From a virus (Duplodnaviria > Caudoviricetes), in IMG/VR virus record IMGVR_UViG_3300021400_001346, positions 51,740 to 115,739 of that record: a stretch of DNA of 64,000 bases; one strand, given 5' to 3'. A program made the position numbers and the translations under genes. The notes beneath the pieces are model-generated. The model saw only the letters and a program-made list of their open reading frames with translations. It did no database searches and was not told the origin of the DNA. Positions within the stretch are counted from its first letter, which is position 1. Each line of letters starts with the position of its first letter. Shown in pieces: positions 2,094 to 56,017 of the stretch.

Positions 2094-2615
2094 ATGCAAA
2101 ACTGGGATGACATCCTTTATCCATCATTTAGAGCTACTATTCGTGGTGAGTATTATGGCATTATTACTCAAGACGATATCGACGAAGAGTGTTTTTTCCT
2201 TGCGGAAAGAGCTGTCGCCGCGTTTAAATTTCCTCATATTTCTACTGACTATACAATCTTCTATGCGATAAGAGATGCCGACAATGGCTTAGAAACAGTT
2301 GACGCAGACACTGAAGGAGCAATCCCTCATGCTTACTTCAATAATGACCTTACTTATGCCGAAATCGAAATCATTATCGCATGGATGAAAGTTTATTGGG
2401 CAGAAAATCAAATCTCTAATGCCGATAACTTTGACGACATCTATACAGATGTTAATATTAAGACTTATAGCCGTGCCAACATGTTAGATAAGGCTACAAA
2501 CTTATATAAAACTTATCGTGAAAATGCTCGTGAACTTGAAAATCGTTATAGTCGTGTTAACGTTAAGAAAGCCCCAAGTATGGGCGATATTAATGAGGAC
2601 GATGATAATGAATAG
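2094..2615 (+). CDS. Putative head-tail adaptor/connector
   Basis: 173 aa, AGGAGG RBS, helical; position between capsid and tail genes. Function by synteny. Confidence 0.45.
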   Translation: MQNWDDILYPSFRATIRGEYYGIITQDDIDEECFFLAERAVAAFKFPHISTDYTIFYAIRDADNGLETVDADTEGAIPHAYFNNDLTYAEIEIIIAWMKVYWAENQISNADNFDDIYTDVNIKTYSRANMLDKATNLYKTYRENARELENRYSRVNVKKAPSMGDINEDDDNE

Positions 2616-3453
2616 TTTTGAACGTTTTCGTAATCGTCAAAAACAAAGAATAGCAGCAACTGACCAACTTAATAGTCAATTTATTTTTAAAGGTTATCCA
2701 TCTATTAAAATCGAAAATCAAGACGGCATGTTAAAGCAAGCCGCGGTTGTCAACAAGCAAGAGAAAGATCAGGCTTATATTTATACACAACTTGATGACC
2801 CACTAACCATTGGTTCTGTTTGGTCCGCAAAAGGACTACATTGGTTGATTTCTGAAGAAATTATCATTATTAAAGACGTAAAATGGCATAAGTATCTCGC
2901 CTTTTTGTGCAACGTTGAACTTGATGATATGTGGGGATATTTTGTTGGGCCTGAAAAGTCTTACATCAATATCGCATTGCGTGAGAACGTAATGATTGAA
3001 TCCTTACAACATCCTCTTCTCATCTTACCATCTGATGCATTATCATACGAAGACAAAATTATTATCAAAGGGAGACCTTGGATAATACAAGAATATGATA
3101 GCATTAGCACCGAAGGAATTACTTATTATTCTTTGCGCGCAACTACTGTTTCTAAAGAAGTCGCGGCTGAACATAAAGATGAAGAAGTTTATGTTGAAAA
3201 GCATGTTGACAACTTAATCATTCCATCTTTTGAAGATGAAGACGCATCTGATTTTAATGTTAAACCTCAACAACAAATTACTATTACAACCGTTGGTGGA
3301 TATTTTAAATATTCAAACAAAAGTATTAAAGTAATTGCACATACAAGCACATCAGTTATTTTTTATCTACCTTTTGGTGTAGATAAATGTTCCATTGAAA
3401 GAAAGGACAGTGAAGGCAATATTATTGAAGAAACCTATACTGTGGTAGAATAA
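2608..3453 (+). CDS. Putative head closure protein
   Basis: Start re-called at ATG 2608 (MNSFERFR..., GAGGA RBS, overlapping the previous stop); beta-rich; function by synteny. Confidence 0.45.
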   Translation: MNSFERFRNRQKQRIAATDQLNSQFIFKGYPSIKIENQDGMLKQAAVVNKQEKDQAYIYTQLDDPLTIGSVWSAKGLHWLISEEIIIIKDVKWHKYLAFLCNVELDDMWGYFVGPEKSYINIALRENVMIESLQHPLLILPSDALSYEDKIIIKGRPWIIQEYDSISTEGITYYSLRATTVSKEVAAEHKDEEVYVEKHVDNLIIPSFEDEDASDFNVKPQQQITITTVGGYFKYSNKSIKVIAHTSTSVIFYLPFGVDKCSIERKDSEGNIIEETYTVVE

Positions 3454-3454
3454 T

Positions 3455-3961
3455 ATGAAAAGTTTAAAAAATATTAATAAGGCGGTTTTTGAAATCGTTA
3501 CTTTGCTTTTACAAAACGATAATATTAAGAAACTTTTGTTTTGGGACTCCGCCGATGCACTTAGTTTAGAGGTGCCAGACATTTCTATTCAACGTTATAT
3601 TGATGATAAATACATCTGGCTTTATCCCGCCGTTGAAACTGGCATTCAAAATTTTGAACGCAATACTTTCTTAATCGTTAATTTGGAAGAAATTAATTTA
3701 AGAGGTATGGACGCAAACACTAGCGCAAGTGGAGCAATTTATGTAACAACTGATGCAAAACATTCTCTCCTTGATAATAATCAACTTAGATTATTAGTAT
3801 TAGCAGATGAAGTTCGACAATCTTTAGATAATCATAAATTATCTGCGGCTGGTGAATTGCAAATCAATTCTATCCGTCAACAAATGATTAGTGAATTTCG
3901 TAGTGCTTATAGAATTTCTTTTAGTTTGTCAGACCAATCAACTAGAAAGGCGGAAATTTAA
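3455..3961 (+). CDS. Putative tail completion/terminator protein
   Basis: 168 aa, translationally coupled to neighbours, neck position. Confidence 0.4.
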   Translation: MKSLKNINKAVFEIVTLLLQNDNIKKLLFWDSADALSLEVPDISIQRYIDDKYIWLYPAVETGIQNFERNTFLIVNLEEINLRGMDANTSASGAIYVTTDAKHSLLDNNQLRLLVLADEVRQSLDNHKLSAAGELQINSIRQQMISEFRSAYRISFSLSDQSTRKAEI

Positions 3962-4692
3962 TGCAAGATAATTTTGATTTATTCCGTCTTTTTTTAACTA
4001 AAGAAGTTACGATTTATAGTGACGACGGAGCGGCACTTCTTTCAATGAAATGTCCTTCTATTCGTGATACATTAACAGAACATTATTTAAATCTTGCATA
4101 TCAACTATGAACATCTGATATGGAAGAAATCACGAAGAAAACTGGATTACAAGTAAAAAGTTCTTGAGATTTGTTAACAACCATCTTATTTGATTTAGGC
4201 AAATATCGTCAATTCGCCAACTTATATTCCTGTTCTCTTCAAACACTTAAATTTCTTTTTAATGACAAGGTATCTATCAATTTAGGTCTTCACACCCTAA
4301 CCATTGGTGATGTTATTATGACAGAAGAAATTTGAGATTATGTAATTTATCTATTAAAATTATGTTATGGGGTGAAGGTTTCAAAACCTATTCACTTTAA
4401 TACAGACGAGGAACGCCAATGATATTTGGCTCAAAAGAAAAATGAAAACCGCATTCGTGCATTAAGAGAAAAAGGCAGTAAAGATTCTCAAGATGCCATG
4501 CTTAAGATTTTTCTTAATATTACTTACGCGTTTCCTAATTTTACTTTTGATTATTTATTTGATCAAACCATGGCTCAAATTCACTGACTCCAAAGCAAAG
4601 CCGCGGGAGCAGTGTCTTATGAAGTAAAAGCGCAAGCTTATGCGGCTGGTAATATGAAAAAGGGTTCACAACTCGATTTCTTTATTAAATAG
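3961..4692 (+). CDS. Tail-module protein (possible assembly chaperone), 243 aa with 5 in-frame TGA(Trp); absent from the ORF track
   Basis: ATG overlaps the upstream TAA (TAATG); frame open to TAG 4690-4692 except TGA at 4108, 4165, 4333, 4420, 4585; fills the gap up to the tail-tube RBS. Confidence 0.8.
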
Positions 4693-4704
4693 AGGTATAA
4701 AAAC

Positions 4705-5658: not shown

Positions 5659-5680
5659 TAATCTTTAACATTTCCATTCA

Positions 5681-5740: not shown

Positions 5741-5773
5741 ATATTTACACACTAGCGTGTAAAGGAGATTTAT

Positions 5774-5983: not shown

Positions 5984-5987
5984 CATC

Positions 5988-7836: not shown

Positions 7837-8301
7837 ATGTTAAAATACGATTCTACACTAGTCACTTTTACCGAAGTGCCTGATGAAATTTCTTTATGTT
7901 TTAACATTTCCAACTGCCCTTGTCATTGCCAGGATTGCTTCGAACCTTGGCTTAGAGAAGATCGCGGCGACCCATTGACTTTAAAGGCAGTGTGCAGCGA
8001 ATTGGAAAAACATCCTCATGTAACCTGTGTATGCTGGATGGGAGGAGATGCAGATTATGATGCATTAATCAGACTATCAACTGCTTTAACATTTGTTATG
8101 CCTTCCTTAAAAATTGCTATGTATAGCGGCAGACCTGAAATGTCATTTCCTCTCGCCGATTATCTTGACTATTATAAAATTGGCCCTTATATGCCGCAAT
8201 ATGGTCCGCTTAATAAAACTACCACCAATCAACGTTTTTATAAAAAGGTAAACGATAATTGAACTGATATTACTTATCGTTTCCAAGAAAAGAAGGATTA
8301 A
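7837..8301 (+). CDS. nrdG: Anaerobic RNR activating enzyme (radical SAM)
   Basis: CxxxCxxC (CPCHCQDC), KIGPY, TTNQRFY; TGA 8260 as Trp gives the typical C-terminal WTDITYRFQ. Confidence 0.92.
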
Positions 8302-17363: not shown

Positions 17364-20300
17364 ATGGCATATTTTAAACTTGAACTACTTACTCCCAATA
17401 TCGTTTTTGGTACTAATAAAAACTATGGGAATATTACATATTTTAAAGACACCATTAGTGAATTTGATTTATCAAATACTACTTTTCAATCCACTCGCTC
17501 TTCTGACGAAATGTGGGCTACTACTAATTTTACTTACACATATAATGAAAAGCTATCTATTCATCAAAATAGTCAAAAAGATTTAACTTTTTCTTTAAAT
17601 CTTAAAACTTTTTCACATAACAACTGGATAAACAATCCTTTCGCGGATTTACTCCATGTTGGTAGCAAATTGCTTTTAACTGATAAATATAATAACACTT
17701 ATATTTTTAATGTTACTAAAATTGAATACAAACCTAATGAAATCAACACTGAGCTCGCTTTTACTTGCCAAGATACTTTCTCTTATCAACTGGCACGTCA
17801 AAACAGCGGCTACACCATTAAGAATGATGAAACATCAGAAGACTTCATTGGCGCCCGCACATTAGACTATTGGGCATTAAAAATTGCTCAAGAATGTCAT
17901 ATTAGTTTCGCGGACTACTTACGTCTCGACCAAGGATTATGTCGCCTTACTTTAGCAGATGGCACAATTGAATATCACGTTACTAATAGTTTTGATAATG
18001 TAATGCCTTATGGCGCCGCAGAAGTAGTAGATTTTACTATTGTTAAACCTATTTTTCCTAAACCAACTGAATTAGATAAAACTTATGCGGACTACTATGA
18101 GGAAATTCCTTTTGCGGTTAGCGGTTCAACTGCCAGTGCGGCACTTATTGCCCTCGGCAATGAATTGTCCTTTAACTTAACTACTTGCGATACTTTTGAT
18201 GCCGAATCTAAACAACAAAAGTCTTATTTCTGGTTTGCGCCTGCACATAATGACCAAATTAGTGGTCTTACCTATTCTCCTTATAAGAATATTCAATCTT
18301 TCTCTTTTGGTAACTCAGGTGAGGCGCTTACTACTGTACTTAATGTCGAAGCGCGCAAATTATCTGATGATAGTTTGGTTACTATGCTTCCTGAAGTTAA
18401 TGGCTTCTTTACTCAATATTTCTTAGATACCGAATGAGAGCAAAGTGTCTTTACAACTGGAATGTTTAGTGAAATTTGTCAAGGCAATACTAAAGTGGCC
18501 ACCACAGACGCTTCTTTTGAAAACGCCTATTTAATCGCTACTACTTACGAAGCCGTTGCGCCTGAAGCTTTCCGTAACTTATGGTATCAAAGAAAGTTTA
18601 GCAAGGTGGTATTAAATGATACTCCTTACATTTGCATACCTTGTTACCAAAATAGTTATTCCGCACTTTTCCATACTCCTAAATGGTATGGTCGCATTAA
18701 CTTCCGCACTCATAATCAAGAAGTTACTAATGTTTTAGAAAGCGCAGCCAGCCATATTAGTTTTAATACTTTTGGTGTTTATTTTGATATTAATACCGCC
18801 TTCTTAGGTTTATTCTCTGAAGATGAGACACCTGAATTATTATATTTAGTTGGCGAAGATGACCAAGAACTTGCTGTCGAAGCTCGTAATCAAGACTATC
18901 TCGCGGCGATTTTAATTCCTGTAGGTCAATTTTATCAAGGCGGCGAGGATTCCATTGATGAGGCCAACCTTTCTGACATTACCAATTATCACGTCTACTT
19001 CAATTGGAATCGTGTACCAACTGAGTCTGAATTACAATTCGCGGCGATCGCAGACCAAGCCCCTTGGTTAGAAAATAAAATTATTGATTTCTCTTACTTT
19101 GTTAAACAACACATCATTAACCAAGACGAATATAGACATTTAATTGATATGCTTTACAACGAATTGCGTATCGTTAATGGTCAATTGCTCGTTTACTATA
19201 AATCTTACGTTGCGGCCGTACAAGCCAAAACTAAAATTGTGGCAGAAGTACTTAACAGTTTGGATGCCCTTGGCGCGGCGTTGCAAGCAGATGTTATTGA
19301 TGTTTATGCAACCAAAGGGAAACTCGAAGACTTTTCTTACTTTAATCAAGCCTACAACACAGTACTTGAAACACAAAAACAAAATAAAACTTTATTCAAT
19401 CTTCCTTCTTTATTAGAAGAATACTTCCGCAAATATTTCAATGCCGAACAACGTTTCTTAAAGAATATTCATAGATTCCAAGAATACTTTAATGCACCTG
19501 TTTCATTTGGTAAAGAAGGCACCGCTATTTATCAACATGATGTTAGATTGTCTAATAGCACCTTACCTGCCGGAACTACTCGTTATGCATTTTTAACCTT
19601 TCCAAATGCACAATTCCGCACTTTACCACAAGATTTTGCGGAATGGATAAATGATAAAGAGAGCATTAATTACGGTCAACCTTATAATACAATCTATTAT
19701 AAGAATATGGCTTCACCTGTAAAAATTGTTACTCAAGATACATTAGCTAATTACTATTTACCATTAATTCGTCAAGATCAAGACTTATTATCTTGCGCAG
19801 GTCAAAAATATTCTGCAACACAATCTTATTATTATAAAGAGAATAATGAGTGAAAACAAGCCGATTTTAGTTATCTTGCTGAACATTACTTACAAGGTAG
19901 TAATAGAAACAAATTCTATCTTAGAGACCAAGAATATAAATCTGTTAACAGTCCTGAACCATATTTAAACTGGGGCGAAGTTGGCACATTAACAAGTTGG
20001 CTTTACAATGAAGATGACTCGAATAAGACGAATGATTTGTTAAGAGTTTTATGTGCATTAACCTACAGCGACGCAGAGTTAACTTTAACTGACGCCAACT
20101 TGGCACAAACTTTATTTGATGCTTTCAAAAAAGTAAACTTGCCTAAAAATGCTACTCCTTCTTATACATATACATCTTGTTTTCCTTTAGCTAATGTATA
20201 TGTTAAAGACTATAAATATAATATTATTAACGGTAGTAACTTATCTATTTCAGTTTTAAATCAACAAGGGTTAACATATCAACAATGGTATGACGCACAA

Positions 20301-24426: not shown

Positions 24427-25042
24427 CATTATTGTCTTTTTTCTTCCATCTATCTGGATGTACTTGTGGGTCTACATAGAAGAAAATATTTTTAAGCATC
24501 AATACATCTTCTAAAGCGTCATGCGCTCCTTCGTTATCAAATCCTAAGATTTCAGCAACAAGACTTAAACGCCATTTGCGTCCTAATTTATCTTTTAAAC
24601 CATGCCAATTCATTTTCTTTGCATCATAGATACAATCGTAATAACCATCAATGCCAGGGAATTTTTCTTTATTAAAGAAGTCGTAATGAATGCCTAAAAT
24701 GCGGCAACGCTCATTTAACATACGACGGTCAAATGCTTCGCCGTTATAAGTCAATACCAAGTCTACATCATGTTCTTTCATTCATACACAAAAATCACCT
24801 AAAACTTCACTTTCGCGGCGGCAGTTAACTAAATCTTTTTGATAGATGCCGTGAACTGCAGAGGCGTCAGGTGCGATAGTATGAGTTGTTTTAATACGCT
24901 CATTAAAACTATCAATGATTTTTCCATCTGTATTAACAATTACTGCGGCGATTTGAATTGGCGCGGCAGTATTCCAATAACGGTCGGTTGTTTCAGTATC
25001 TAAAATACATATGCTTTTAAAGTCGTGAATATTAAAGTCCAT
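24407..25042 (-). CDS. DEDDh 3'-5' exonuclease (DnaQ/epsilon-like), 211 aa
   Basis: ILDTETT, YNGEAFD, AHDALEDV motifs; start ATG 25042 with AGGAG; one TGA at 24782 joins the two track ORFs. Confidence 0.85.
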
Positions 25043-36137: not shown

Positions 36138-37022
36138 TTAAATTAAACTAGCTTGTCTAGCACTAATTGTTTTACTTGCAGGAACTTCAGTGTTGTCTCC
36201 AGCTGCGGCGCTATTAGCAGCATTTGCTTCTAATTCTTTACCTTCAGCCTTATAAGAATTGACTAAACTATTGATAATAGGTCTTCCATATTGTCTATTA
36301 TCTGTAATAACTGTTGAACCGCTTTCAATGAAGTAGTTATTTTGTTTATTAGTGTATGTTCTTGTAACTGGTGTACCGAAAGCTGCATTGTCGTCTTGAA
36401 CAGTAACTTGTTCAACTTTGAAGATTAATGAACCACTGAATTGAACAGTATCACCGGCTTGGTATAATTTTTGAATACTATTAACAACATCAGTTCTTGC
36501 TGGATCAACGTGAAGAGTGAATAAACTCATCTTGTCACCTGCATAATTTGCTTGAGCAAGTCCTAAATCATAACGATAAATTTCGTTTTCTTTATTTTTC
36601 TTTTCAGTTAAAGTTGTAACAATGAATCCACCTAAAATGAAACGAGCGACATCTGGTTCAGTAACTACAACGCCTTTAACGAAGTTGCCTGATAATTGAG
36701 TTGCAGATGCTAATTGTTTTGTTTTAGTGCTGAAGAATCTGTTTTCTCTTAATGAACCATCAATTTGAACTTTCTTGCCAACTAATGAACCCATTTTAGA
36801 ATAAGATTCATAAAGTTTATTTGGAGTTTTATCTGCTTTTAATTGATTTGAGTAGAATCTAACTGGATATTCACAATGAATACCGTTAATTTCTGCACCA
36901 ACAAGTGCTTCTACTGAAATGTAACCAGCTCCATCTGATTTCTTATTACCATACTTAATTTGTGCATCTAGTAATGTTCCAACGATTGTAAATGAGTTTT
37001 CTCTGTAAAATGTGTCTGCCAT
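36138..37022 (-). CDS. ssb: Single-stranded DNA-binding protein (two OB-fold-like halves)
   Basis: N-terminal NSFTIVGTL and VQIDGSLREN pattern, flexible C-tail, adjacent to the annealing protein. Confidence 0.65.
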   Translation of the reverse strand: MADTFYRENSFTIVGTLLDAQIKYGNKKSDGAGYISVEALVGAEINGIHCEYPVRFYSNQLKADKTPNKLYESYSKMGSLVGKKVQIDGSLRENRFFSTKTKQLASATQLSGNFVKGVVVTEPDVARFILGGFIVTTLTEKKNKENEIYRYDLGLAQANYAGDKMSLFTLHVDPARTDVVNSIQKLYQAGDTVQFSGSLIFKVEQVTVQDDNAAFGTPVTRTYTNKQNNYFIESGSTVITDNRQYGRPIINSLVNSYKAEGKELEANAANSAAAGDNTEVPASKTISARQASLI

Positions 37023-39721: not shown

Positions 39722-39723
39722 GG

Positions 39724-39966
39724 TTATTCTCCTTTCTTTTCAGCAGCCGCCTTCGCAGCCTCTTCTTGTAATTTAAAAAGTTCTGTAACTGTAACAACTC
39801 TACCGTCATCTAATTTAATAGATACATGGTCCTCAAGAAGACAAAGTCTTTGATTAAGAACATTGATAAAAGATATTAAAACTGAAACAGGGGTATCTGG
39901 TCCCAAGTTAATATCTTTCCAACTTTGAGGGGCGGTTGATTGTTGTTGTTGTTTATTTTCTTCCAT
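39724..39966 (-). CDS. Hypothetical protein
   Basis: 80 aa between the topoisomerase subunits, AAGGAG RBS. Confidence 0.7.
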   Translation of the reverse strand: MEENKQQQQSTAPQSWKDINLGPDTPVSVLISFINVLNQRLCLLEDHVSIKLDDGRVVTVTELFKLQEEAAKAAAEKKGE

Positions 39967-39987
39967 ATTATTATGCTCCTTTATATT

Positions 39988-40016
39988 ATTATATGTTTGT
40001 CAATTCTTATTGTCAA
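39988..40016 (-). promoter_or_regulatory. Consensus sigma-A promoter
   Basis: Exact TTGACA-17 bp-TATAAT. Confidence 0.85.
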
Positions 40017-40020
40017 TAAA

Positions 40021-41961
40021 TTATTCTATATCATCGTCATCATATTCTTCTTCAAAAAGGTCATCATCACCTTTAATTGATGATAATCTGTTTTGAATAA
40101 TGAAATCACGACGTAATTGTGCACTTTTACCCATTAAACTGTCGTATAAGTCTAGTGTGGCTTGCATGTCGTCAGTTGTTAACTGGACTAAATGACGATT
40201 AGCAGGGTCCATGGTCGTTGAGTAGAGTTCTTCCGCGTCCATTTCGCCCAATCCTTTGTACCTTGTGATCTCGCATTTGTGGCTTTTGATATATTTTCGA
40301 TATTCTGCATTGTCTTCGTACCAATATTTAGTTCCATCACGAGCCGCGACGGTTCTATATAATGGAGGTGTGGCCGCGTAAACTTTGCCAGCCTCGACTA
40401 ATTCAGGCAGATGATGTAAAAATAGTGTCATGAGTAAAAGTTCTATATGTTTCCCATCTGAGTCAGCATCCGTTAATATAATTAGCTTATCATATCTTAA
40501 ATTTTTAATGTTGAAGTATTCACCGACGCCGCACCCCAAGCAATTTAAGATACCTTGTATGATTTCACTTTTGATTGCATCTGCTAATTCTAGGCTAGTG
40601 CAATTTTTAATCTTGCCTCTTAAAGGAAGCACTGCCTGATTTTTTGCTTTACTGAGCTTAAGATTGCCTGCTGCTGAATCACCTTCACAGAAGAATAATT
40701 CCGCATTGTTGAAATCAATAGCATCGCATAACTTCTCTGGTAAATCTCTTAAACTATTAAGATTTTTACCGCCTTTTGTAATTTTTTCTTGGGCTTCACG
40801 TTTTCTCGCGGCGGCATCTTCAGCCTTTTGCTCAATCATAATCTTCTTAAAGATTTGTTCACCAACTTTCTTTTCAAAAGTTAATTGCCCAACGGCTTGA
40901 CTGCACCATTTACGGGCTTCAGGTGAATTTAAAGTAAGTTTAGTTTGTTCACCGAATAAAGGACGTGTACTCATCTTAATAGATAAAACCAATACTAATC
41001 CTTTACGAACAATATCGCCGCTAAAGTTTTTATCCTTATCTTTAAGAATTTCTAACTCACGCGCGGTTTTATTTATTAATGATGTATAAGCGGTTTTCCA
41101 ACCTGTAACGTGTGTACCATCGTTTGGTGTGTAGCCGCCATTGACGAAGGAATAAATGGTTTCAAATGCCTTGTCGCAATAGGCAAAAGCCATTTCAACT
41201 TCGCAGGTGCCTTTATCATCGCTCACGGTAGTCTTGAAGTAATTTGGGTCGGTTAGCATGGTTAGACCGGCGCATTTTATCTTTAGCATATCTTTGATGC
41301 CGTTAGAATAGCAGAAGGTATTTCTCTTTTTACCATCTGCCCAAAGTTCAAAGGTAATGCCATTATTTAAGAGTGCGTGTAATTGCAATTCGTCAGCAAT
41401 ACGATTAAGATCCCACTTATTATCATTACCAAAAACGGTAGCATCTGGTATAAAACTAACAATTGTGCCGCTTGTGTGTCCTTTGGCGGGTTCAATGAAT
41501 GGGTCATCGTCATAACTGCCGTCAAACACTTCAAACTTACAATGTTCGTCATCTCTCCAAACTTCTATAGAAAATTCAGATGAGAGTGCGTTAGTTACGG
41601 TGGCACCAACACCATTTAGACCAAGAGAACTTTTATAGTTACCTTGTCCAGTGAATTTACCTCCTGAATGAAGGTTAGTACACATTTCAATTATCGCCCA
41701 TTGACCACTTGCGTTGCGGCGGAATGGAATACCACGACCGTTATCAATAACAGTAGCTCGATTTTCTTCTGTATTGATTTTTACGGTAATTAATTTACCA
41801 TATCCCGCGGCGGCTTCGTCCATAGCATTGGCTACGATTTCAGTAAGCAGATGGTGTAAACCATTAGAGTCTGCTGCACCGATATACATACCTAAACTTT
41901 CTCGTGCCGCTTGTCGATAGTCAAGAGTGATGATTGAATTTTCATCATACTTTTGTATCAT
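40021..41961 (-). CDS. gyrB: Type IIA topoisomerase subunit B (GyrB/ParE family)
   Basis: EIVANAMDE, DNGRGIP, LHSGGKF, GLNGVG, EGDSA, PLRGKI, TDADSDG, RYKGLGEM. Confidence 0.92.
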   Translation of the reverse strand: MIQKYDENSIITLDYRQAARESLGMYIGAADSNGLHHLLTEIVANAMDEAAAGYGKLITVKINTEENRATVIDNGRGIPFRRNASGQWAIIEMCTNLHSGGKFTGQGNYKSSLGLNGVGATVTNALSSEFSIEVWRDDEHCKFEVFDGSYDDDPFIEPAKGHTSGTIVSFIPDATVFGNDNKWDLNRIADELQLHALLNNGITFELWADGKKRNTFCYSNGIKDMLKIKCAGLTMLTDPNYFKTTVSDDKGTCEVEMAFAYCDKAFETIYSFVNGGYTPNDGTHVTGWKTAYTSLINKTARELEILKDKDKNFSGDIVRKGLVLVLSIKMSTRPLFGEQTKLTLNSPEARKWCSQAVGQLTFEKKVGEQIFKKIMIEQKAEDAAARKREAQEKITKGGKNLNSLRDLPEKLCDAIDFNNAELFFCEGDSAAGNLKLSKAKNQAVLPLRGKIKNCTSLELADAIKSEIIQGILNCLGCGVGEYFNIKNLRYDKLIILTDADSDGKHIELLLMTLFLHHLPELVEAGKVYAATPPLYRTVAARDGTKYWYEDNAEYRKYIKSHKCEITRYKGLGEMDAEELYSTTMDPANRHLVQLTTDDMQATLDLYDSLMGKSAQLRRDFIIQNRLSSIKGDDDLFEEEYDDDDIE

Positions 41962-41990
41962 ATCTATCTCCTTTAATAATAAATCATGTA

Positions 41991-42018
41991 AATAAAAAGT
42001 ACCGGTTTAACGGTACTT
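41991..42018 (-). terminator. Terminator-like hairpin in the gyrB leader
   Basis: Minus strand AAGTACCG-TTAAAC-CGGTACTT followed by TTTATTT. Confidence 0.65.
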
Positions 42019-42115
42019 ATAGTCTGCCTTAAGTATGTGTATATTGATTAATGGTAAGTAATGATTAATGATTAATCTCAACACCCTAATTCCTTTTTCC
42101 CGGTTCCCTAATTAT

Positions 42116-42144
42116 ATAGTAGTAAATTAAGCGACTTTTGTCAA
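42116..42144 (-). promoter_or_regulatory. Sigma-A-type promoter about 150 nt upstream of gyrB
   Basis: TTGACA-17 bp-TACTAT. Confidence 0.65.
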
Positions 42145-42201
42145 GGAAAAGTTTATTAGTTAAGATAAAGATTTTAATTTTTGAGTTCAATTTGGCTTAA
42201 A

Positions 42202-44034
42202 TTATTCGTCAATTGGGTCCTTAAAGAGAATGTATAAGTCATCATCATACCACAAAAAGCGTGGAGAATTTTTAGTAGCCTGAATGGTTGTTGGATCGAC
42301 ATCTGAATATTCAACAAATTCGAAGATACCTGTTGGACCAATATCACCTTGCGCACCGGTTGGGCCTGTACTTCCTGTTGGACCAACACTGCCTGTAGCA
42401 CCAGTTTGTCCAGTTGGACCGATATTACCTTGTTTACCTGTTGGGCCAATAGTACTAACGAACACGGCATTACCACTTGGGTCATAGATATAGATGCCGT
42501 TCTCTGCTACTTCAATGCTGTAATTGGCTGGAGTTAAACCAGTTGGACCAATATCACCAGTTTCACCCTTTTCGCCCTTTTCACCAGTTGGACCAGTAGG
42601 ACCTACATTTCCTTGAGGACCAGTTGGACCCATTAAACCTGTAGGACCAATATCTCCAGTTGGGCCAGTGTCACCTTTTGCGCCTGTAGGGCCTACGGTA
42701 CTTACAAAGATGGCATTACCAGATGGATCGTATATGTAAATGCCACTATCTGTAGTTTCAATTGAATATGATTCAGGAGTTAAACCTGTAGGACCAACAC
42801 TGCCGGTTGGACCTTGAGGGCCTGTGTTTCCTTTCGCGCCTGTTGGACCAGTAGGACCGACAGTAGAAACAAACACGGCTTGACCAGATGGGTCATATAT
42901 ATAGATACCATTATTAGTGGTTTCAATAGCATAAGAATCGGCACTTGGACCAGTTGGACCAATACTACCAGTTGGACCAGTAGGACCTTTTTTACCTTGT
43001 GGACCAGTAGGACCGATACCGCCTGTTAATCCAGTTGGACCTCTTTCACCAGTTGGACCGATTGGACCGGCGTTTCCTTTTGGACCTGTTGGACCTACAC
43101 TACCAGTTGGACCAATGCTACCTGTTGGACCTGGTGCGCCAGTTCTACCTTGCGGACCAGTTGCACCTGTAGGACCTTGAGCGCCTGGAATACCAGTTGG
43201 ACCAATAGCACCAGTATCACCTTTTATACCTCGTGCACCTGTTGGACCAGTATAACCTATTTGCCCTTGCGGACCTGTTGGACCAGGAACACCTTTTTCA
43301 CCTTGTGGTCCTCTTATACCAGTTGCACCTGTAGCACCTATTGCACCTTGAGGACCAGTAGGACCTATTGGACCACTTTGTCCCGCGCTACCTTGCGGAC
43401 CTGTTGGACCAATATTGCCTTGTTCGCCTTTAGGACCTGTAGGACCAATATCTCCAGTTGGACCTTTTTTACCGTCAGAACCAGTTGGACCGGTTTTACC
43501 TATTGGACCCATTGCGCCAGTAGGACCGATTGCGCCAGTAGGACCGATTGCGCCAGTAGGGCCAGTGTCTCCTTGCATACCAATTGGTCCAGTGTCGCCT
43601 TGCGCACCGGTTGGACCGACGCTACCAGTTTCACCAGTTGGACCAACTTCACCTTGCGGACCTGTTGGACCGATATCTCCAGCAGGACCAGTTGGACCGA
43701 TGTCACCCTTTTGACCCGCGGAACCTGTAGGACCAGGTTGTCCTTGTGGACCCGTAGGACCGATTTCACCCGTTGGACCGATTGGGCCGCCATGAGGACC
43801 AGTTGGCCCCATTGGACCAGTAGGACCTAAACCACCAGGTTCACCTTTGTCTCCCTTAGGACCTTGAGGACCTTGCGCGCCATTAATATATGTTGTAGAA
43901 TGTAAAGAGGAAGTTTCACCTTCTTGCTGAAAAGAGCCGGTCACATGAACGGCTTGATGAACATCAACTTTTTGGGTTTGTCTAATACTATTAAGTGTTA
44001 TTAATTCAACTTGACGAGTAGATGTTTTATCCAT
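42202..44034 (-). CDS. Collagen-like fibre protein (GPT-rich) with three 30-aa interrupting modules
   Basis: Long G-X-Y runs dominated by GPT; modules at about 42859-42948, 42694-42783, 42448-42537. Confidence 0.9.
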
Positions 44035-44038
44035 ACTA

Positions 44039-44347
44039 CTATTCTCCTGAAGAAATTTCTACGACATTAACTTTTCTTTTAACTACCAATTCACCATTAT
44101 AAACAATGGTCCATACATCATCATTAGAAAAATGTACAGTAATATCATAAGAATATGTGCCAACTCTTAAAGTTTTAGTAGTTTCTGGGCTAAGAGTAAC
44201 TGTCCAAACACCAGAATTGTTTGTACGTTGTTCACATTCTTTTTGTATATTTAATACTTTAGAAGAAAAATAAACATGTGCAATATCTTGATCAGAGTTA
44301 AAGTCGAAATCCGCAATTAATGTATCTCCTTGAACAATTGTTAACAT
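44039..44347 (-). CDS. Small Ig-like/BppU-like virion adaptor
   Basis: Start MLTIVQGDT at 44347 (GGAGGA RBS); GTYSYDITV...[11 protein letters not shown] pattern typical of fibre-anchoring proteins. Confidence 0.6.
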
Positions 44348-44380
44348 ACGCTTTCCTCCATAATTTTTCATTATATAATC

Positions 44381-44409
44381 ATTATACAAATTAAAAAGAG
44401 CTTAGTCAA
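44381..44409 (-). promoter_or_regulatory. Sigma-A-type promoter overlapping a terminator hairpin
   Basis: TTGACT-17 bp-TATAAT; the -35 lies in the loop of the 44395-44418 hairpin. Confidence 0.75.
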
Positions 44410-44418
44410 AAGCTCTTT
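44393..44418 (-). terminator. Intrinsic terminator after the uracil permease
   Basis: AAAGAGCT-8 nt loop-AGCTCTTT running into a T tract on the minus strand. Confidence 0.65.
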
Positions 44419-45684
44419 CTATTTCTTTTTGTTTTTTAAAATAAGATTTAGTAGCACGCCCAATACCATTGCTAGTGCAACGCCAGTGAAACTTGCTGAC
44501 CATAAGAATAGTCCACTAACTCCAACGGTCAAGATAACACTTACAATGATAAGGTTTTTAGGCTCTTCTAAGTCAGGTTTGGCCGCGAGTAATGTTTTAA
44601 GCCCGCTTGCTGCAATATAACCGTAGAGAATCATCGCTACGCCGCCAAAGACAGCAGATGGTATTGAAGAAATAAAGACGGTAATTGGTGCAAAGAAGCC
44701 CATACCTATTAATACAACTGCGGTTGCTGTACTAATCCATACACTTGCAACTCGGCTGAATCCAATCGCGGCGATACTTTCACCATAGGAAGTATTAGGT
44801 AAGCCACCAATAATTGTTCCTATCGTAGACGCAACACCATCGCCAAGTAAAGTTCTACTCATGCCTGGGTCAAGCGTTAAGTCGGTTCCGATAATATTAG
44901 ATAAAACCTTATGGTCCGAATAATGCTCAAGTGCCGCGCAGATAGAAACTGGTAAGAAGAGAATAATTACATCAATAATATGTTTTGCTTCAAATGGACT
45001 ATTGCCCCATTGCATAAATGCGAAACTATTTGGATTAAACCACTCAAAGCCTTGGAAGGCCGCGAAGATACCGAAATCATAAGCGGAACTTGCTTCCAAA
45101 ACAATTGCAAGAACATAACCAATGCCAAGACCAATTAAGAATGAAATAGTTTTAATAAAGCCTTTGCAATAGTGAGTAATAAGAGCAGTTGCAATCATGG
45201 TAACTACTGCGACAACCATTGGAATTCAATCAATGCCAATATAAGTTGGCAAGAAGCCCGCCAAATTTAAACCAATAACCATAGTGACTGGACCAACGAT
45301 AATGGCTGGGAAGATACGTTCAAACAACTTTTTACCAAAGAAATGAACTAATAAAGCAAAAGCACCATATACGATTAATATTACTGCGCCGCCAATTGCA
45401 ACAGCGATATAGTTATTTCCTCCGCCGAGAGCCAATGCTCCGACGACTGCGCTGACTGTGGCGCCGCAAGAAGAAATAAACATTGGGGATTTGAATTTAG
45501 TAAAGAATTGATAGATTAATGTACCAACACCGGCGCCAATTAGACATGAAGGAATTGGAGTGCCGCAAATATTAGCAATTAAAACTGTGGCGACAAATAC
45601 ACTTAACAACATTTGTAAAGTATATAATATCCATTCATACCACTTACGAGGACGTTCATTCACTTGATAGATTAAATTATTCAT
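44419..45684 (-). CDS. uraA: Uracil/xanthine permease (NCS2, UraA/PyrP-like), 421 aa
   Basis: Many TM helices; GGLPNTSYGES signature; SIPSAVFGG; single TGA at 45226 joins two track ORFs. Confidence 0.88.
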
Positions 45685-46195
45685 CAAACTCACCTGCCTT
45701 TGTTTTTATCCAGGCAATTGCGTCTTCAATGTTTGAAACTAAAACGCCGCCCTGTTTAATTAAACCAGTAACGTAAAGATTTTGATAACTATATTGTTGT
45801 TCGCCTAACGATGCCGCGCCACCCTCGTCTTTGGCTTGGCTATGCGTAAGGAACATTTGTCTATTGTCAGTACAAATGCCGACAATATATTTGTGGTCTC
45901 CTCTTTCAATTTTCTCGTGAAACTTACCGATTTCTGCGCAAGTGCCTGAAGGAAGAACGTCTCCATCAATGCAAGCTAAAAGAATATCAGTATTGTTTAA
46001 ACGTTGATTGTCTCCATTGGCGATTTCTTGTGAACCAGCGAATTTTTTCTTACCTTCAACGCCGTTAATATCAGTATTCTCAACTGGAGAATAGAGATCA
46101 ACGCCTGGGAAGGCAGCACGAATTTTTGCAGCCCATTCTGTATTTCGCAATAAATCACCATAGCAGAAGATTCCACCTGCTAGATAAATTTTCAT
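45677..46195 (-). CDS. Nucleoside 2-deoxyribosyltransferase/N-glycosidase family protein
   Basis: MKIYLAGG, YSP, D..DILLA.IDG..LPSGTCAEIG, NLYVTG motifs. Confidence 0.85.
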   Translation of the reverse strand: MKIYLAGGIFCYGDLLRNTEWAAKIRAAFPGVDLYSPVENTDINGVEGKKKFAGSQEIANGDNQRLNNTDILLACIDGDVLPSGTCAEIGKFHEKIERGDHKYIVGICTDNRQMFLTHSQAKDEGGAASLGEQQYSYQNLYVTGLIKQGGVLVSNIEDAIAWIKTKAGEFDE

Positions 46196-47943: not shown

Positions 47944-49293
47944 CTATACAAGGTCTCATCCTCTTGTATAATCTTTTAGTCTATATAATTGTTCAAAACG
48001 GCCCCACGCGCATACTATTAAATTATCTCTTGCACGAGTAAGTGCAACATATGCAACATTTAAATCTTCCATACTAGTAATAGGGTGATCAATAACAATA
48101 ACGTTGTCATATTCTAATCCTTTCGCTTGGTGAATAGTAGAGACATTAGTATATCCCATTTCTTGAATTTCCTTAACCCTTTTATTAGTACGGCAAAGCA
48201 CCATAGGGTTTTGATTTAACACTTTATAAAATTGAAGTGCCGCTTGTTCATTAGACAGATGCTTAACTACATCTTTATTATTAATATATATATTATTACC
48301 AAATGGGTCAAGTATAGACACAGACCCATCACTATCGCCGCGAGCGCAGTGTATCCCGGCTTGAGAAATACTTTGAACCGCAGAAATGCACGACTCATCT
48401 TCATCTTCAATAAATGGTTTTAAGCGTTGATAAACTTCACTTGCATAATCAACAATACATTGATAACTACGGTAATTATATTTAAGTTTATATAAATCAA
48501 AGTCATCTAACTTGGTAAATATTGCACCATCTGCGCCACGAAAAACGAAGATAGATTGCCAAGGGTCTCCTATAAAGAATTTTTTCTTGCAGATGACTTT
48601 CTTGAAGATATTAAATTGGGTTTCGTCAACGTCTTGGAATTCGTCTACAAATAAGGCATCAATTCCTCTAATGTCTTCGTGATAATATTCCAGCACGTCC
48701 CACAAGTAAAGTGGATAGTCAGTAAAATCATAGAGTTGATTATCGCGCTTATACTTAATATAGTGCCCTTCTAAAATGGCTAACATGCGGCGATAATTAT
48801 CACTTATGTCCATAATTTTATTTCCGCATACCCATGAATATAAAATGCCTAAATTAACTTTAATTCTTGGATTATTCTTTCTACGATAATCTTCTCAAAT
48901 ATCATTTAATATCATTTTGATATCGCCTTCTTGTAAAATACTTATCTTAAAATCATATTTTATTCCAAAGGCTTCTAATTGTTTGCGCGCTCAAACGTGT
49001 ATGGTAGTTACTTCCACGTCAAAAATACCCATATTGTGCAACCTTTCTTCCATTTCAGCGCGGGCGGCACGTGTATAGGTAATAGCGCAGATGCGGTCAT
49101 TGATATTATCATAACGATATGCGGCAACGGCGGTAATTAATGTATTAGTTTTGCCACTGCCAGCAGGGGCCTTAATGACAATGTTATCACTGTCGTTTTC
49201 TATTGCCGAACGTTGTGTATTATCAAGACGATTCAAATCTACTTCAAAGTTTTTATTTCTTGGTTCTTGTTTAAAAGCTGTTTCCAATTCCAT
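47944..49293 (-). CDS. UvrD/Rep-like SF1 helicase (compact), 449 aa, 3 TGA(Trp)
   Basis: APAGSGKT, ITYTRAA, TTIHVW, VDEFQD, GDPWQSIFVFRGA, NYRS, TIHQAKGLEYD, YVALTRAR. Confidence 0.9.
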
Positions 49294-49828
49294 CGTCTAG
49301 TCCTTTTTCTTTAAAATGCAAAACTTTATCATATTGCGCTTTAATGTCTTCAAGATGAGGGTCGGTGGTTAAATATTCACTCACAAATTGAGCGGTTGCG
49401 CGGCAATTATGTAAAGTCATTTTACTATCTTCCTTAGTATATAAATTTTCTACATATGGTAATAAATTAGGGTCTTTCTCAATGATTTCTCTAATTTTGT
49501 CTATAAACAAATCACAGTATGGTAAGTCTGCTTCATCGTCTTGAAAGTTAAAAACGGCATCAAATTTAAAATCATTTTTGTTCATATTCCCAAAAATAAT
49601 AATATCATCGTTTGTTTCAATTGCCGTTTTGACTAATCCTTTCGCGGCGACAGCGGCATAGAAGTAGGCCATCACCCAGTTGCCAACTGTTTTGGTAACC
49701 ACTAAATTGTCCATAAAAAGTGGCATAAAAAAGGTTTTATCTCTTGCATCGCCAGTTAGATTTTTATAAATAGCGGCGCACCAATGTACCCATTTTTCAT
49801 CACATGGGGTTAATACAAGTATTTTCAT
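49271..49828 (-). CDS. Hypothetical protein
   Basis: 185 aa, coupled to neighbours. Confidence 0.7.
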   Translation of the reverse strand: MKILVLTPCDEKWVHWCAAIYKNLTGDARDKTFFMPLFMDNLVVTKTVGNWVMAYFYAAVAAKGLVKTAIETNDDIIIFGNMNKNDFKFDAVFNFQDDEADLPYCDLFIDKIREIIEKDPNLLPYVENLYTKEDSKMTLHNCRATAQFVSEYLTTDPHLEDIKAQYDKVLHFKEKGLDDGIGNSF

Positions 49829-50298
49829 TAATCTTCTAATTCCTTTCTGCGGCGAACAGCCAAAGCATCAACGTAAATATTCCAACGATTGTTACTATGA
49901 CTTTTTACCTTAATAATTTCTATTTTAAAACGTTCTTTATTTTTAATCCAAAGTGCCACAATGCGGCGCCAGAGGTCTTGATTTTTGACATCTTGTTTAT
50001 CACTAGTTTTCCAACCATTACTTATCCAATTGCGGTACCACCCATCATTAAAGGCATTAACAATGTATGCGCTGTCGCAATAAATAGTTACCTTGGTATG
50101 ACTGGTTTGAATAGTGTCAATATTTTCAAGAGCGGACAAAATGGCGGTTAACTCCATACGATTATTAGTTGAGTATGGTTCGTAACCGCTTTGTTCATCA
50201 ATAATCATACCATCTTCTAAACAAACACTGGCCCATCCGCCCATTTCACTTTTGGCAGAATAAGCACCGTCTGTATAAAATTCTAATAATCTTGGCAT
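49828..50298 (-). CDS. rnhA: Ribonuclease HI
   Basis: YTDGA, STNNRMEL, YCDSAY, VKNQDLW, KVKSH, N.YVD.LA; start MPRLLEF at 50298. Confidence 0.92.
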   Translation of the reverse strand: MPRLLEFYTDGAYSAKSEMGGWASVCLEDGMIIDEQSGYEPYSTNNRMELTAILSALENIDTIQTSHTKVTIYCDSAYIVNAFNDGWYRNWISNGWKTSDKQDVKNQDLWRRIVALWIKNKERFKIEIIKVKSHSNNRWNIYVDALAVRRRKELED

Positions 50299-51737: not shown

Positions 51738-51769
51738 AGTTTACTCCTTTTTATTATTTTACTGTTTAT

Positions 51770-52288: not shown

Positions 52289-52346
52289 CCCGGTCTGCCA
52301 TCATATCGGGTTAAGGTAAACCTTAACCCTCGCGGCGACCCATAAG

Positions 52347-52372
52347 AAAAGACCTCCTAGGAGGCCTTTTTT
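52347..52372. terminator. Bidirectional terminator
   Basis: AAAAGACCTCCTAGGAGGCCTTTTTT between convergent genes. Confidence 0.7.
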
Positions 52373-52958
52373 ATTCTTGGAAAATCAATTCGATACTATC
52401 AACGTAAAGGCTGTATGTAATGCTATGTACAAGTTCGAATGTTTTAGCAGCGCCACTTACATTAAAACTATATTCATATTTATCAGCCTCTGTGTTCCAA
52501 TTAATGACGGTTGGAGTTTCACTTTCTTTATTGAAAGTAAAGACAAGCGCGTGTTCGTTAGCATAAACTTTTTTGTCTGCATTGAGGACGATGTTAACTT
52601 TTTTGACATCTGCGTCAAACGCGTCTTCATTTTTAATGGCAGAGGATTTGCCGTTTTTAGTTCTCATTTGAATGCCATTGCCATAAGCGGCACATTCAAC
52701 AAAGCTGAACTTTTTGCCTCCAACAGTACTTTCTCCGTCCTTATAGGCGATGTTACTATCTGCATATCCCAATAAATTTGCGGCGGTAAGTTTAATTGGA
52801 TCAACAACGACAGGTTCTTCAATTACAGGGTCTTCAACGACAGGTTCCTCAACAGTAGGTTCATCAACATTAGGTTGTTCTTCAACGGCGTGTTGAGTTC
52901 CGCATCCAACTAATGTCATAGTGGCAGCGGCGATAAGAAAAAGATTTTTGATTTTCAT
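52371..52958 (-). CDS. Lipoprotein with acidic E/P/V linker
   Basis: MKIKNLFLIAAATMTLVG|C signal peptide II lipobox; EEQPNVDEPTVEEPVVEDPVIEEP linker; beta-rich domain; AAGGAG RBS. Confidence 0.8.
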   Translation of the reverse strand: MKIKNLFLIAAATMTLVGCGTQHAVEEQPNVDEPTVEEPVVEDPVIEEPVVVDPIKLTAANLLGYADSNIAYKDGESTVGGKKFSFVECAAYGNGIQMRTKNGKSSAIKNEDAFDADVKKVNIVLNADKKVYANEHALVFTFNKESETPTVINWNTEADKYEYSFNVSGAAKTFELVHSITYSLYVDSIELIFQE

Positions 52959-53185
52959 GTAAATGCTCCTTGTATAATCACTATACCTTAATATTTTAGT
53001 GCCGACGCCACGCCAAAGCAAATTTTTCTAGATGGTGGGACTTCTGCCGGCTCGCCGCGAGGTCAAGGTACTTGACCGATATAAAAGACAGCCTAGTCTT
53101 GAAAATCATCCGTATTTTTGTTTTTTGCAGAGAAATATTAGATATTATATTATAATAATGTAGATTAATTATGGAGGATATAATT

Positions 53186-54133: not shown

Positions 54134-54160
54134 AAAAGACCTCAATTCGAGGTCTTTTTA
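54132..54160. terminator. Bidirectional terminator
   Basis: AAAAAA-GACCTC-AATTC-GAGGTC-TTTTT. Confidence 0.85.
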
Positions 54161-54538: not shown

Positions 54539-54553
54539 GGTTTAATCATCTCC

Positions 54554-54934: not shown

Positions 54935-55054
54935 GATACTAATTGTCCTCCTAGCGAGTAACGCTCGCTCCGAATTACAGAGTTATAACTCTCCATCATC
55001 TATACATAACATAGACGAAAAATTTAAATAAAGCAAATCGAAGGAAGCCTTTTT

Positions 55055-55083
55055 TTGTTATTTCTATTTTCTTCAGTTATACT
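55055..55083 (+). promoter_or_regulatory. Sigma-A-type promoter
   Basis: TTGTTA-17 bp-TATACT. Confidence 0.55.
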
Positions 55084-55111
55084 AATATTAATTAAAAAGG
55101 AGAATAATGCT

Positions 55112-55288
55112 ATGGATGTTAAACAAGACATTTTAGATTTTAAACAATCAATCATGAATTTTTCATTAGAAGAATTACAAGCTAAAAAAGAAGAACTTAA
55201 CAACCAACTTTCCAAGATGATTTTAGACAGCGACGTGGTAATTAAAATCGCCATAGTAGATGCCCTTATCGAAGAAAAGGAAAAATAG
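55112..55288 (+). CDS. Small coiled-coil hypothetical protein (58 aa)
   Basis: AAGGAG RBS, start MDVKQDIL. Confidence 0.7.
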   Translation: MDVKQDILDFKQSIMNFSLEELQAKKEELNNQLSKMILDSDVVIKIAIVDALIEEKEK

Positions 55289-55291
55289 TCT

Positions 55292-56017
55292 ATGGCGCGT
55301 TTAAGCACTAATCAAATACGTGACCTAATCGCCGCGAAAGGGAAGTTTAGTCTAGTTTCAGATGAAGGCTATGAGAATATTCATAGCCGCATTTTAGTCA
55401 GATGTGATAAAGGACATCTGTTTGAAACTTGTATCGCTGATGTGCGCCATCCTTCTTTTGCTTGCCCTCAATGCAATCGACACCTGGATTTCATTAATCC
55501 CGCGGCCGTACCTCAAAAGCGTGGCTACAGACTTATTGCCTTTGATCAAGCAACTGAGAAGTTCGGATTAAGTATTTATGAAGACGGCAAACTAATTTTT
55601 TATAGTTTGTATCAATTCAGCGGCGACGTAACTGCCCGCTTAAGCCAAATTAATAAGTTCGTTCGTGATATCGTAATCGCGCAATGAAGGCCTGATTACA
55701 TTGTCATGGAGGATATTCAATATCAACAAAACGGATTAATGACTTTTAAGGTATTAGCCATGTTGCTTGGCATCTGTGAAATTGCATGCCGCGACAATGA
55801 TGTTCCTTATGAAGTAGTTTCTCCTAACGTTTGAAGAAAATATGCCGGCACCGCTGGTAAGACTCGCCGCGAAGAAAAATTGCTCTCCGTGGGAAAAGTT
55901 AAAGAACAGTATGGTGTTATTGTATCAGATGACATCGCAGAAGCAATTTTAATTGGAAGCTATGGGATTAGGATGCACCAAGGTGCGCCGCTCAAAATGG
56001 CTTTCGGAGGTAAGTAG
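55292..56017 (+). CDS. ruvC: RuvC-like Holliday junction resolvase with N-terminal zinc ribbon, 241 aa, 2 TGA(Trp)
   Basis: CDKGH...CPQC; [34 protein letters not shown]. Confidence 0.8.

Follow-up and report, generated by a model that had tools for sequence, protein, structure and literature searches.

The over-used word described here has its nearest known relatives in the highly iterated palindromes (HIP) of cyanobacteria. Besides HIP1 (GCGATCGC), an alternative and exceptional HIP, GCsGC, is known from Cyanothece sp. PCC 7822; HIP densities are quoted as 1,000-2,000 per Mb, and every HIP genome in that study has a cognate methyltransferase (Elhai 2015, PMC4390886). In this paper we describe the excess of the word GCSGC (S = G or C, i.e. 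GCGGC/GCCGC) in a virus of the class Caudoviricetes, analysed in a stretch of 64,000 nucleotides (hereafter the window; positions 51,740 to 115,739 of IMG/VR record IMGVR_UViG_3300021400_001346), which is the right-hand part of a 115,739-bp record rated complete (genome G000). The word is identical to that of Cyanothece, all-G/C and palindrome-like; like the HIPs it is grossly over-represented in coding DNA (in several frames) as well as in non-coding DNA, and it reaches a density of the same order, i.e. thousands per Mb (2,886 against 1,000-2,000). However, HIPs reside in cellular genomes together with a cognate methyltransferase, whereas G000 is a virus in which no methyltransferase was found; its minimal enriched core is the non-palindromic 4-mer CCGC/GCGG, unlike the palindromic HIPs; and the trait spans a deep phage lineage, while the GCsGC HIP is that of one strain. 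Because of the missing cognate enzyme, the non-palindromic core and the viral carrier, we regard the GCSGC excess as a relative of the HIP class but not a member. The analogy with cyanobacterial HIP1 palindromes and their methyltransferases had been drawn in an earlier note on this DNA, made from the sequence alone; it is strengthened by the published alternative HIP GCsGC (PMC4390886), but its enzymatic half fails in the four virus genomes compared below, in none of which a methyltransferase of the classes searched was found.

Several other systems share individual features with this excess. The Dcm/Vsr footprint of very-short-patch repair in E. coli consists of an excess of CCWGG (W = A or T) and a deficit of CTWGG; there, too, a process at the level of the DNA has raised the frequency of a restriction-type word, but in G000 neither Vsr nor a C5 methyltransferase was found, and T-containing precursors are not in deficit. 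Similarly, the uptake sequences of competent bacteria (the DNA uptake sequences, DUS, of Neisseria and the uptake signal sequences, USS, of Pasteurellaceae) are short words, 9-12 bases long with a fixed extended consensus, that spread through genes and spacers by molecular drive and not by coding need; the word GCSGC, by contrast, fixes no more than 4-5 bases and resides in a phage. SPbeta-like Bacillus phages share with G000 a DnaE polymerase of the YorL type (38% identical), a RecJ-like exonuclease, a primase and a helicase, but differ in their word usage (GCSGC 0.79x and GCWGC 1.37x of expectation in SPbeta, all 21 of 21 prophage loci word-poor) and in carrying a C5 methyltransferase. Finally, restriction-site avoidance is opposite in sign: G000 follows this rule for GATC (0.40), AGCT (0.59), GTAC and GGCC and yet multiplies GCSGC, in agreement with the remark of the earlier note that the word runs counter to the palindrome avoidance usual in phages. 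No paper describing such an over-used word in phages was found in the literature, and the suggestion that it may be undescribed there still stands.

Gene calls were made with genetic code 4, since, compared with the standard code, it fuses the tape-measure gene and further long genes and raises open reading frame coverage from 0.81 to 0.89. As the main null, synonymous codons were shuffled within each gene, which keeps the protein sequence and per-gene codon usage; dinucleotide-preserving shuffles and order-1, order-2 and order-3 models served as further nulls, together with which the codon shuffle replaced maximal-order Markov z-scores, which mask the signal because the sub-words are themselves enriched. 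The domain of over-use covers the whole window (positions 1 to 64000, without strand), with 177 copies of GCSGC (93 GCGGC and 84 GCCGC on the plus strand) and 55 of GCWGC, and runs on through the remaining 51.7 kb. The genome as a whole contains 334 GCSGC, where the order-1 model predicts 77, against 102 GCWGC. Genes hold 309 copies, where the synonymous shuffle yields 143.0±9.3 (z 17.9), and the genes of the window alone 167 against 72.5±7.0 (z 13.5), whereas GCWGC occurs 95 times in genes where 168 are expected. The outcome that the earlier note would have taken as a refutation, a loss of the enrichment once amino-acid sequence and codon usage are preserved, thus did not occur.

Among the 5-mers of G000 GCSGC ranks first, as does CCGC among its 4-mers, and low-order k-mer statistics likewise indicate a short core (CGCCGC, CGCGGC, GCSGCGA). 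For example, CGCGGC/GCCGCG, which the earlier note had put at several dozen copies, occurs 48 times in the window against 5.6 under the order-1 model. Among all-G/C 4-mers, CCGC, CGGC, CGCC and GCGC are enriched, while GGCC, CCGG, GCCC and CCCC are neutral or depleted; the related ACCGC is likewise enriched, and CCGC outside GCCGC still reaches 1.26x. Flanking preferences are weak: around GCSGC, C at -1 alone is enriched (1.33x; a C on either flank, CGCSGCG) and the other positions match the null, and the oriented core GCGG slightly prefers T before and C after it (TGCGGC). CCGC and GCGG are balanced in G000 (342 forward, 319 reverse), and this balance, together with an even spread over eight bins, holds in all four genomes. 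The metagene profile of GCSGC is flat, so that there is no gene-position effect, and spacing is over-dispersed (coefficient of variation, CV, 1.3) with gaps of 2-4 kb, the longest GCSGC-free stretch measuring 4.0 kb (genome positions 40699-44699, upstream of the window). By these counts the iterated unit is GCSGC with the core CCGC/GCGG, strand-symmetric and genome-wide.

That the signal lies in the DNA and not in the proteins, as the earlier note had proposed, follows from its distribution over frames, strands and non-coding DNA, and from the difference between S-centred and W-centred words. Both GCGGC and GCCGC are over-used on the coding strand in each of the three frames, and both strands are enriched. 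In frame 0 the word always encodes Ala-Ala, so that every GCS-GC gained (143 against 80) must come at the cost of a GCW-GC (64 against 126). S and W centres are independent of each other in the two remaining frames, 1 and 2, where 134 GCSGC were found against 49 expected and 19 GCWGC against 27. The GCWGC deficit is therefore mostly a bookkeeping consequence, and the enrichment of the S centre is primary. Similarly, the 12.5 kb of non-coding DNA hold 26 GCSGC where order-1, order-2 and order-3 models predict 7.9, 11.3 and 15.8, respectively; TGA-free and TGA-containing genes are alike (2.31x and 2.02x); and a permease gene of host type has 8 copies against 3.5. The signal is thus independent of protein coding, genetic code, strand and position. 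An explanation as an artefact, be it of codon usage, of amino-acid content, of uneven local GC or of restriction acting against other words, could draw on the Ala-Ala trade-off in frame 0 and on a 1.3x over-use of Ala-Ala, but frames 1 and 2 and the non-coding DNA are enriched independently, the remaining all-G/C words are not enriched, and controls of the same GC content show nothing; we consider such an explanation refuted for practical purposes. Two further candidates were rejected. An origin from hairpins or terminators finds no excess of close site pairs (43 at distances of up to 40 bp against 36) save for the overlapping GCSGCSGC, and, concerning an adaptation at the protein level, amino-acid order adds a factor of ~1.4, near the 1.2 of SPbeta, so that proteins are not clearly reshaped.

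The trait is not confined to G000. Three relatives with code 4 were compared, G001 (119.6 kb), G002 (112.8 kb with terminal repeats) and G003 (a part of 73 kb), which share ~45-65% protein identity with G000 and range from 29 to 40% GC. They possess GCSGC at 2.2-2.4x, CCGC/GCGG at 1.6-2.0x and GCWGC at ~0.55x; among 5-mers GCSGC ranks first in each of the four genomes but G003, where CCGCA takes this place and CCGC outside GCCGC stands at 1.9x. Among controls, T4 shows GCSGC at 0.97x, besides the low value of SPbeta. A megablast of 12 kb against cultured phages gave no match; the polymerase of G000 (1,352 aa), a YorL-type DnaE, has its nearest cultured counterparts in the Bacillus SPbeta group. 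Traits described for the Agate clade are TGA read as Trp, TGA-free replication genes, a genome of ~100-150 kb and an occurrence in animal gut (Borges et al., bioRxiv 10.1101/2021.08.26.457843). An abundant Agate lineage of that study has genomes of ~127 kb. G000 is a TGA-recoded gut/rumen phage of 115.7 kb with a replication block devoid of in-frame TGA, and appears Agate-like.

A profile search yielded 80 polymerase-bearing loci, 77 of which form the rows of a polymerase tree. Forty-four of the 77 have GCSGC at 3x or more of the order-1 expectation, including lineages with codes 11, 4 and 15, while values of 0.4-1.6x are seen in all 21 isolate prophage loci of the SPbeta type and in a few more; the excess, two- to tenfold across the group, marks nearly all gut/rumen metagenome lineages among the loci with this polymerase. 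The high/low label changes 10 times on the tree, compared with 28 times when shuffled, so that the over-use is a heritable trait of a broad uncultured gut/rumen phage group sharing the YorL-type DnaE replication module. It is a labile trait, as indicated by discordant sister pairs (L110/L108, L109/L112, L092/L136). One of these loci, L112, avoids all GCNGC and keeps CCGC at 1.9x, from which we conclude that the 4-mer core is the robust part. By contrast to the density, the places of the sites are not inherited: in codon alignments of 54 ortholog families, 36, 14 and 21 site positions are shared with the relatives, while independent enrichment at positions that the amino acids permit predicts ~34, 17 and 16. 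A density of ~1-5 copies per kb is maintained through continuous turnover at the DNA level. None of the compared loci was closer than ~78% in nucleotide identity, and a metagenome scan returned none above 68% protein identity.

Some further observations concern these relatives. The avoided 4-bp palindromes differ between genomes (TCGA and GATC in G001; GTAC, GATC, CCGG and TCGA in G002; CATG, AGCT and GTAC in G003), and these sets are presumably footprints of different host restriction systems in phages devoid of methylases. The SPbeta-like prophages of Bacillus, i.e. SPbeta (L034-L040) and the loci L079-L100, display the opposite bias, with GCWGC at 1.4x of the synonymous shuffle and 1.6-2.6x of the order-1 model and GCSGC not enriched. 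In G002 the polymerase match (L010:10001-14358) spans 4,358 bases, which is no multiple of three, and has no reciprocal full-length reading frame, which suggests that the gene may be interrupted by an insertion (intein, intron or frameshift).

The earlier note had taken a 9-mer, TCGCSGCGA, for the iterated unit. Its counts were accurate: the window contains exactly ten copies, at 7962, 18901, 19039, 44766, 48335, 49642, 52330, 53052, 55329 and 55864, where dinucleotide-preserving shuffles give a mean of 0.05 and none of 100 reaches ten; the peptides D-R-G-D, L-A-A-I, I-A-A-K and T-R-R-E are all present; and an A/T-centred TCGCWGCGA is absent from the window and from the whole genome. The genome has 14 copies and none of the reversed control word, and genes contain 12 where the synonymous shuffle predicts 1.5. 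Twelve of the 14 copies lie within unrelated genes, in two frames and on both strands, and two are intergenic.

The copies, which carry no strand assignment, are distributed over the window as follows. The sequence TCGCGGCGA is found at 7962..7970 in the gene 7837-8301 (+), where it reads D-R-G-D; at 18901..18909 and 19039..19047, both in a gene for 1866 aa (17364-22964, +), where it reads L-A-A-I and F-A-A-I, the latter copy forming, with its trailing TCGC, the sole GCGATCGC of the whole genome; at 44766..44774 in a gene of the xanthine/uracil-permease family (44419-45693, -; I-A-A-I); at 49642..49650 in the gene 49271-49885 (-; V-A-A-K); and, between genes, at 52330..52338. The alternative TCGCCGCGA is found at 48335..48343 in a UvrD-like helicase gene (47944-49293, -; A-R-G-D), at 53052..53060 between genes, and at 55329..55337 (I-A-A-K) and 55864..55872 (T-R-R-E), both in a RuvC-like gene (55292-56017, +). 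Both intergenic copies adjoin a hairpin: the copy at 52330 lies immediately 3' of GGGTTAAGG-TAAA-CCTTAACCC and that at 53052, on the minus strand, immediately 3' of GGTCAAG-TAC-CTTGACC. The two hairpins are perfect and differ from each other, and in this segment (52303-53082) the two 9-mers flank the gene 52371-53021 (-), pointing inward.

From the 334 GCSGC cores and a one-sided TC-flank frequency of 0.129, 5.5 copies of the 9-mer are expected, so that the 14 seen are a 2.5-fold excess (p 0.002 before and ~0.03 after correction for 16 flank types). It is conceivable, but in our estimate highly improbable, that the 9-mer is itself a discrete site on top of the 5-mer background, either for a dimeric DNA-binding protein or as a structure-linked element. 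The uncorrected excess and the hairpins beside both intergenic copies, which together bracket one gene, speak for such a site; against it, the significance shrinks once flank types are corrected for, the excess is not repeated in G001, G002 and G003 (3 seen against 4.4 expected, 6 against 3.2, and 0, respectively), in two relatives the 9-mer occurs no more often than the reversed control word, and the flanks of the 14 copies, 12 of them inside unrelated genes, are unrelated, with no shared extension of the kind known from dispersed repeats (REP/MITE-like). The 9-mer is thus mainly a by-product of the 5-mer in AT-rich flanks, its longest common form and not a discrete element, and the unit of iteration shifts from the 9-mer of the earlier note to GCSGC.

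One mechanism put forward in the earlier note was methylation and repair, in which a cytosine methyltransferase for GCSGC or GCNGC, coupled to mismatch or Vsr-type repair, would ratchet the sites upwards. In its favour, the GCsGC HIP of Cyanothece PCC 7822 is found together with methyltransferases for that word (PMC4390886). Phages of the SPbeta family carry a C5 methyltransferase, and a Bacilli bin considered below as a candidate host has two such enzymes with unspecified target. The SPbeta-family enzyme acts on GGCC and GCNGC. Six-frame searches of G000-G003, three of them complete, however, revealed no methyltransferase of the C5 (PF00145), N4/N6 (PF01555) or D12 (PF02086) type and no Vsr (PF03852), while the SPbeta methyltransferase was found as positive control of the C5 search. 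Likewise, neither a thymidylate-synthase-like hydroxymethylase nor TGT/DpdA was detected in these four genomes by six-frame searches, and a Pfam scan of 109 G000 proteins had no DNA methyltransferase or Vsr among the matches listed. The deamination products occur at expectation (GTGGC/GCCAC and GTCGC/GCGAC both 0.98), so that there is no Vsr-type deficit. Moreover, SPbeta has the methyltransferase and yet shows no GCSGC excess, Vsr is absent from both candidate host bins, and their contigs are not enriched, though a ratchet run by the host should affect the host too. We therefore consider a methylase ratchet very unlikely.

Two metagenome-assembled bins with related phage contigs, 'Bacilli bacterium MAG140' (G005) and an Oscillospiraceae bin, were examined as candidate hosts, the link between host and phage being one of binning only. 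In both, phage-like contigs with code 4 have 4-7x GCSGC, whereas four of five bacterial contigs with code 11 lie at 1.0-1.8x; the fifth, 11.6 kb long, reaches 3.6x on four copies. For CCGC/GCGG the sampled contigs, again assigned to a host by binning only, show 1.1-1.4x, and 13 of the 19 CGCSGCG of the 1.9-Mb Bacilli bin fall on one phage-like contig. The contigs of this bin are not enriched in spite of its two C5 methyltransferases, and no Vsr was found in either bin. As a weak indication, given the basis in binning, the sampled contigs of the candidate host bins do not share the GCSGC excess, and the enrichment of the host chromosome that the earlier note had proposed looking for did not appear in them. 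Besides the polymerase contig, a second GCSGC-rich contig with code 4 was observed in the Bacilli bin (G005:C106, L047-L048; 41.7 kb, 71 copies against 10.6), and phage-like contigs in this bin number at least two.

These host data also bear on the possibility that a factor of the gut anaerobes themselves reads the word, be it a Chi-like regulator of AddAB/RecBCD or a word-sparing defence, and that their phages accumulate it. High lineages are indeed known from gut and rumen metagenomes and low ones from Bacillus isolates. The Chi words of Bacillus (AGCGG) and Staphylococcus (GAAGCGG) contain GCGG. Furthermore, Chi-rich phages have been published (LLS, MD8 and other lambdoid phages without Rec modules; PMC12315714), which, like G000, contain a short G/C-rich word far above chance, presumably read by a DNA-processing enzyme. 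In those phages, however, the word is the host's Chi, has a strong orientation bias (20:3, 32:0), is clustered near one end and is accompanied by no recombination module (PMC12315714). G000, by contrast, shows neither orientation nor clustering (the 342:319 balance and even spread given above hold in four genomes), there is no CCGC/GCGG signal in the sampled host-bin contigs, and the genome encodes its own recombination genes, i.e. a Sak annealing protein, a RecJ-like exonuclease, a UvrD-like helicase and a RuvC-like resolvase. As G000 is neither polar nor without recombination genes, a Chi-like role is disfavoured, and selection by a host factor appears rather improbable.

Of the two routes that the earlier note had left side by side, we thus prefer protein binding or self-marking to methylation and repair, and its interpretation as a whole is partly supported. 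Our preferred reading, to which we assign a probability of about 0.4, is that word density is favoured via a conserved sequence-reading activity of these phages: a putative conserved protein of the phages, or of the infection cycle, would act on the word, possibly in priming, junction resolution, topoisomerase action or the marking of phage DNA against host DNA, and a high density would thereby be favoured. The GCSGC density would then be the phage counterpart of the cyanobacterial HIPs. Several results weigh against this reading. No reader protein was found, and when 44 word-rich loci were compared with 24 word-poor ones, none of the gene families lying up to 10 kb to either side of the polymerase followed the trait. 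The over-dispersed spacing with its gaps of 2-4 kb is unlike functions that require even coverage, such as Okazaki priming; GCSGC density is not constant but rises with GC content; the fuzzy set of enriched words (GCGC, CGCC, ACCGC) suits a mutation bias as well as a 4-bp core; and the absence of positional conservation fits mutational drive equally well. In addition, high or low status cannot be told apart from an effect of habitat and host, the contrast being one of metagenome lineages with Bacillus isolates, and hosts were assigned by binning only.

Alternatively, a replication or repair activity at work during infection by these phages may turn near-miss words into CCGC/GCSGC faster than these decay, in which case the excess would be a neutral by-product and no reader would be needed. 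We consider such a mutation or repair bias possible and nearly as likely as a reader. It would account for an excess that is strand-symmetric and present in all frames and in non-coding DNA, for site positions that are not conserved, for a density that scales with GC, for the over-dispersed spacing and the fuzzy family of enriched words, for the host-type permease gene being enriched like the rest, for the lability between the sisters L108/L110 and L112/L109, and for an effect that is almost wholly synonymous (amino-acid order ~1.4x, compared with 1.2x in SPbeta). However, no responsible enzyme was found, and the replication core (polymerase, RecJ-like exonuclease, primase, helicase) is common to the word-poor SPbeta-like phages. 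Every word one base away from CCGC is mildly depleted, and transition neighbours (0.91-0.96 in G000) are affected no more strongly than transversion neighbours, so that no substitution class stands out. Furthermore, all-G/C words would have to be built against strong AT pressure and held at 4-12x of composition over deep divergence.

A more specific form of a sequence-reading activity, which we consider unlikely, is that GCSGC/CCGC is the cognate word of an enzyme of the phage group (a zinc-ribbon RuvC-like resolvase, the primase, 32254-33330, or the type II topoisomerase, 37478-41961) and would act as a methylase-free self-marking code. Further conserved proteins of the clade, without an assigned role, are encoded at 36138-37022 and 25032-26168. 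RuvC enzymes cut at preferred tetranucleotides, which makes the RuvC-like Holliday-junction resolvase of the window (55292..56017, +) a testable candidate reader. Its protein, to which Pfam is blind, has a zinc-ribbon of ~75 aa at the N-terminus (C..GH...CP.C); D85, E140 and D214 are invariant in an alignment of 23 homologues, and its profile matches E. coli RuvC (1hjr) with E 1.2e-8. Of all gene families in the neighbourhood of the polymerase, the RuvC-like one comes closest to following the trait, with 27 of the 44 word-rich loci and one of the 24 word-poor loci; L108 is word-poor and also carries the gene, so that the gene is not sufficient for the trait. A role of the resolvase as reader of the word is speculative and is given little weight here. 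Short forms of the RuvC-like protein, without the ribbon, were observed in the other large clade. A comparison of gene content with SPbeta was uninformative, since the detectable overlap is limited to the replication core and the tape measure.

Next to the resolvase lies a collagen-like tail-fibre gene (56020..58995, +) with 46% GC and one GCSGC, which is among the longest site-free stretches (2.9 kb); with its Gly-Pro-Thr codons only 0.6 GCSGC are expected, so that this site-poor segment is uninformative and no exception. Both collagen-like tail-fibre genes of the window (42202-44034, -, and 56020-58995, +) have 46-48% GC and hardly any GCSGC, and their Gly-Pro-Thr repeats are the reason why GGTCCAAC, CCAGTTGGACC and similar words are so very frequent. 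Another word, CAGATG/CATCTG, is ~2x over-used under the synonymous shuffle (149 against 72.5 in G000, 129 against 70 in G001) but, unlike GCSGC, is unequal between strands (66:94 in G000, 42:88 in G001, 77:42 in G003). The permease-family gene (Pfam E 1e-54) overlaps a nucleoside 2-deoxyribosyltransferase gene by 17 bases (44419-46195, -), and the pair is kept in relatives; it looks like a phage-borne unit of nucleobase import and salvage, and NT5C, dUTPase/dCTP-deaminase-like and NrdD genes are found elsewhere in the genome.

Phages are expected to purge short palindromic words of restriction type from their genomes, and here a deep gut/rumen lineage multiplies one of them without a methyltransferase. 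Such a methylase-free excess points to an undescribed sequence-reading process in phage DNA metabolism, and it provides the long-unexplained cyanobacterial HIPs with a second, far smaller and methylase-free system, in which candidate readers number ~150 genes. In practice, these phage contigs can be told from bacterial contigs of the same metagenomic bins simply by their word density. Should the reader be encoded by the phages themselves, the genome would be formatted for its own replication, recombination and resolution, and phage DNA could be told, by its chemistry or its function, from a host chromosome poor in the word.

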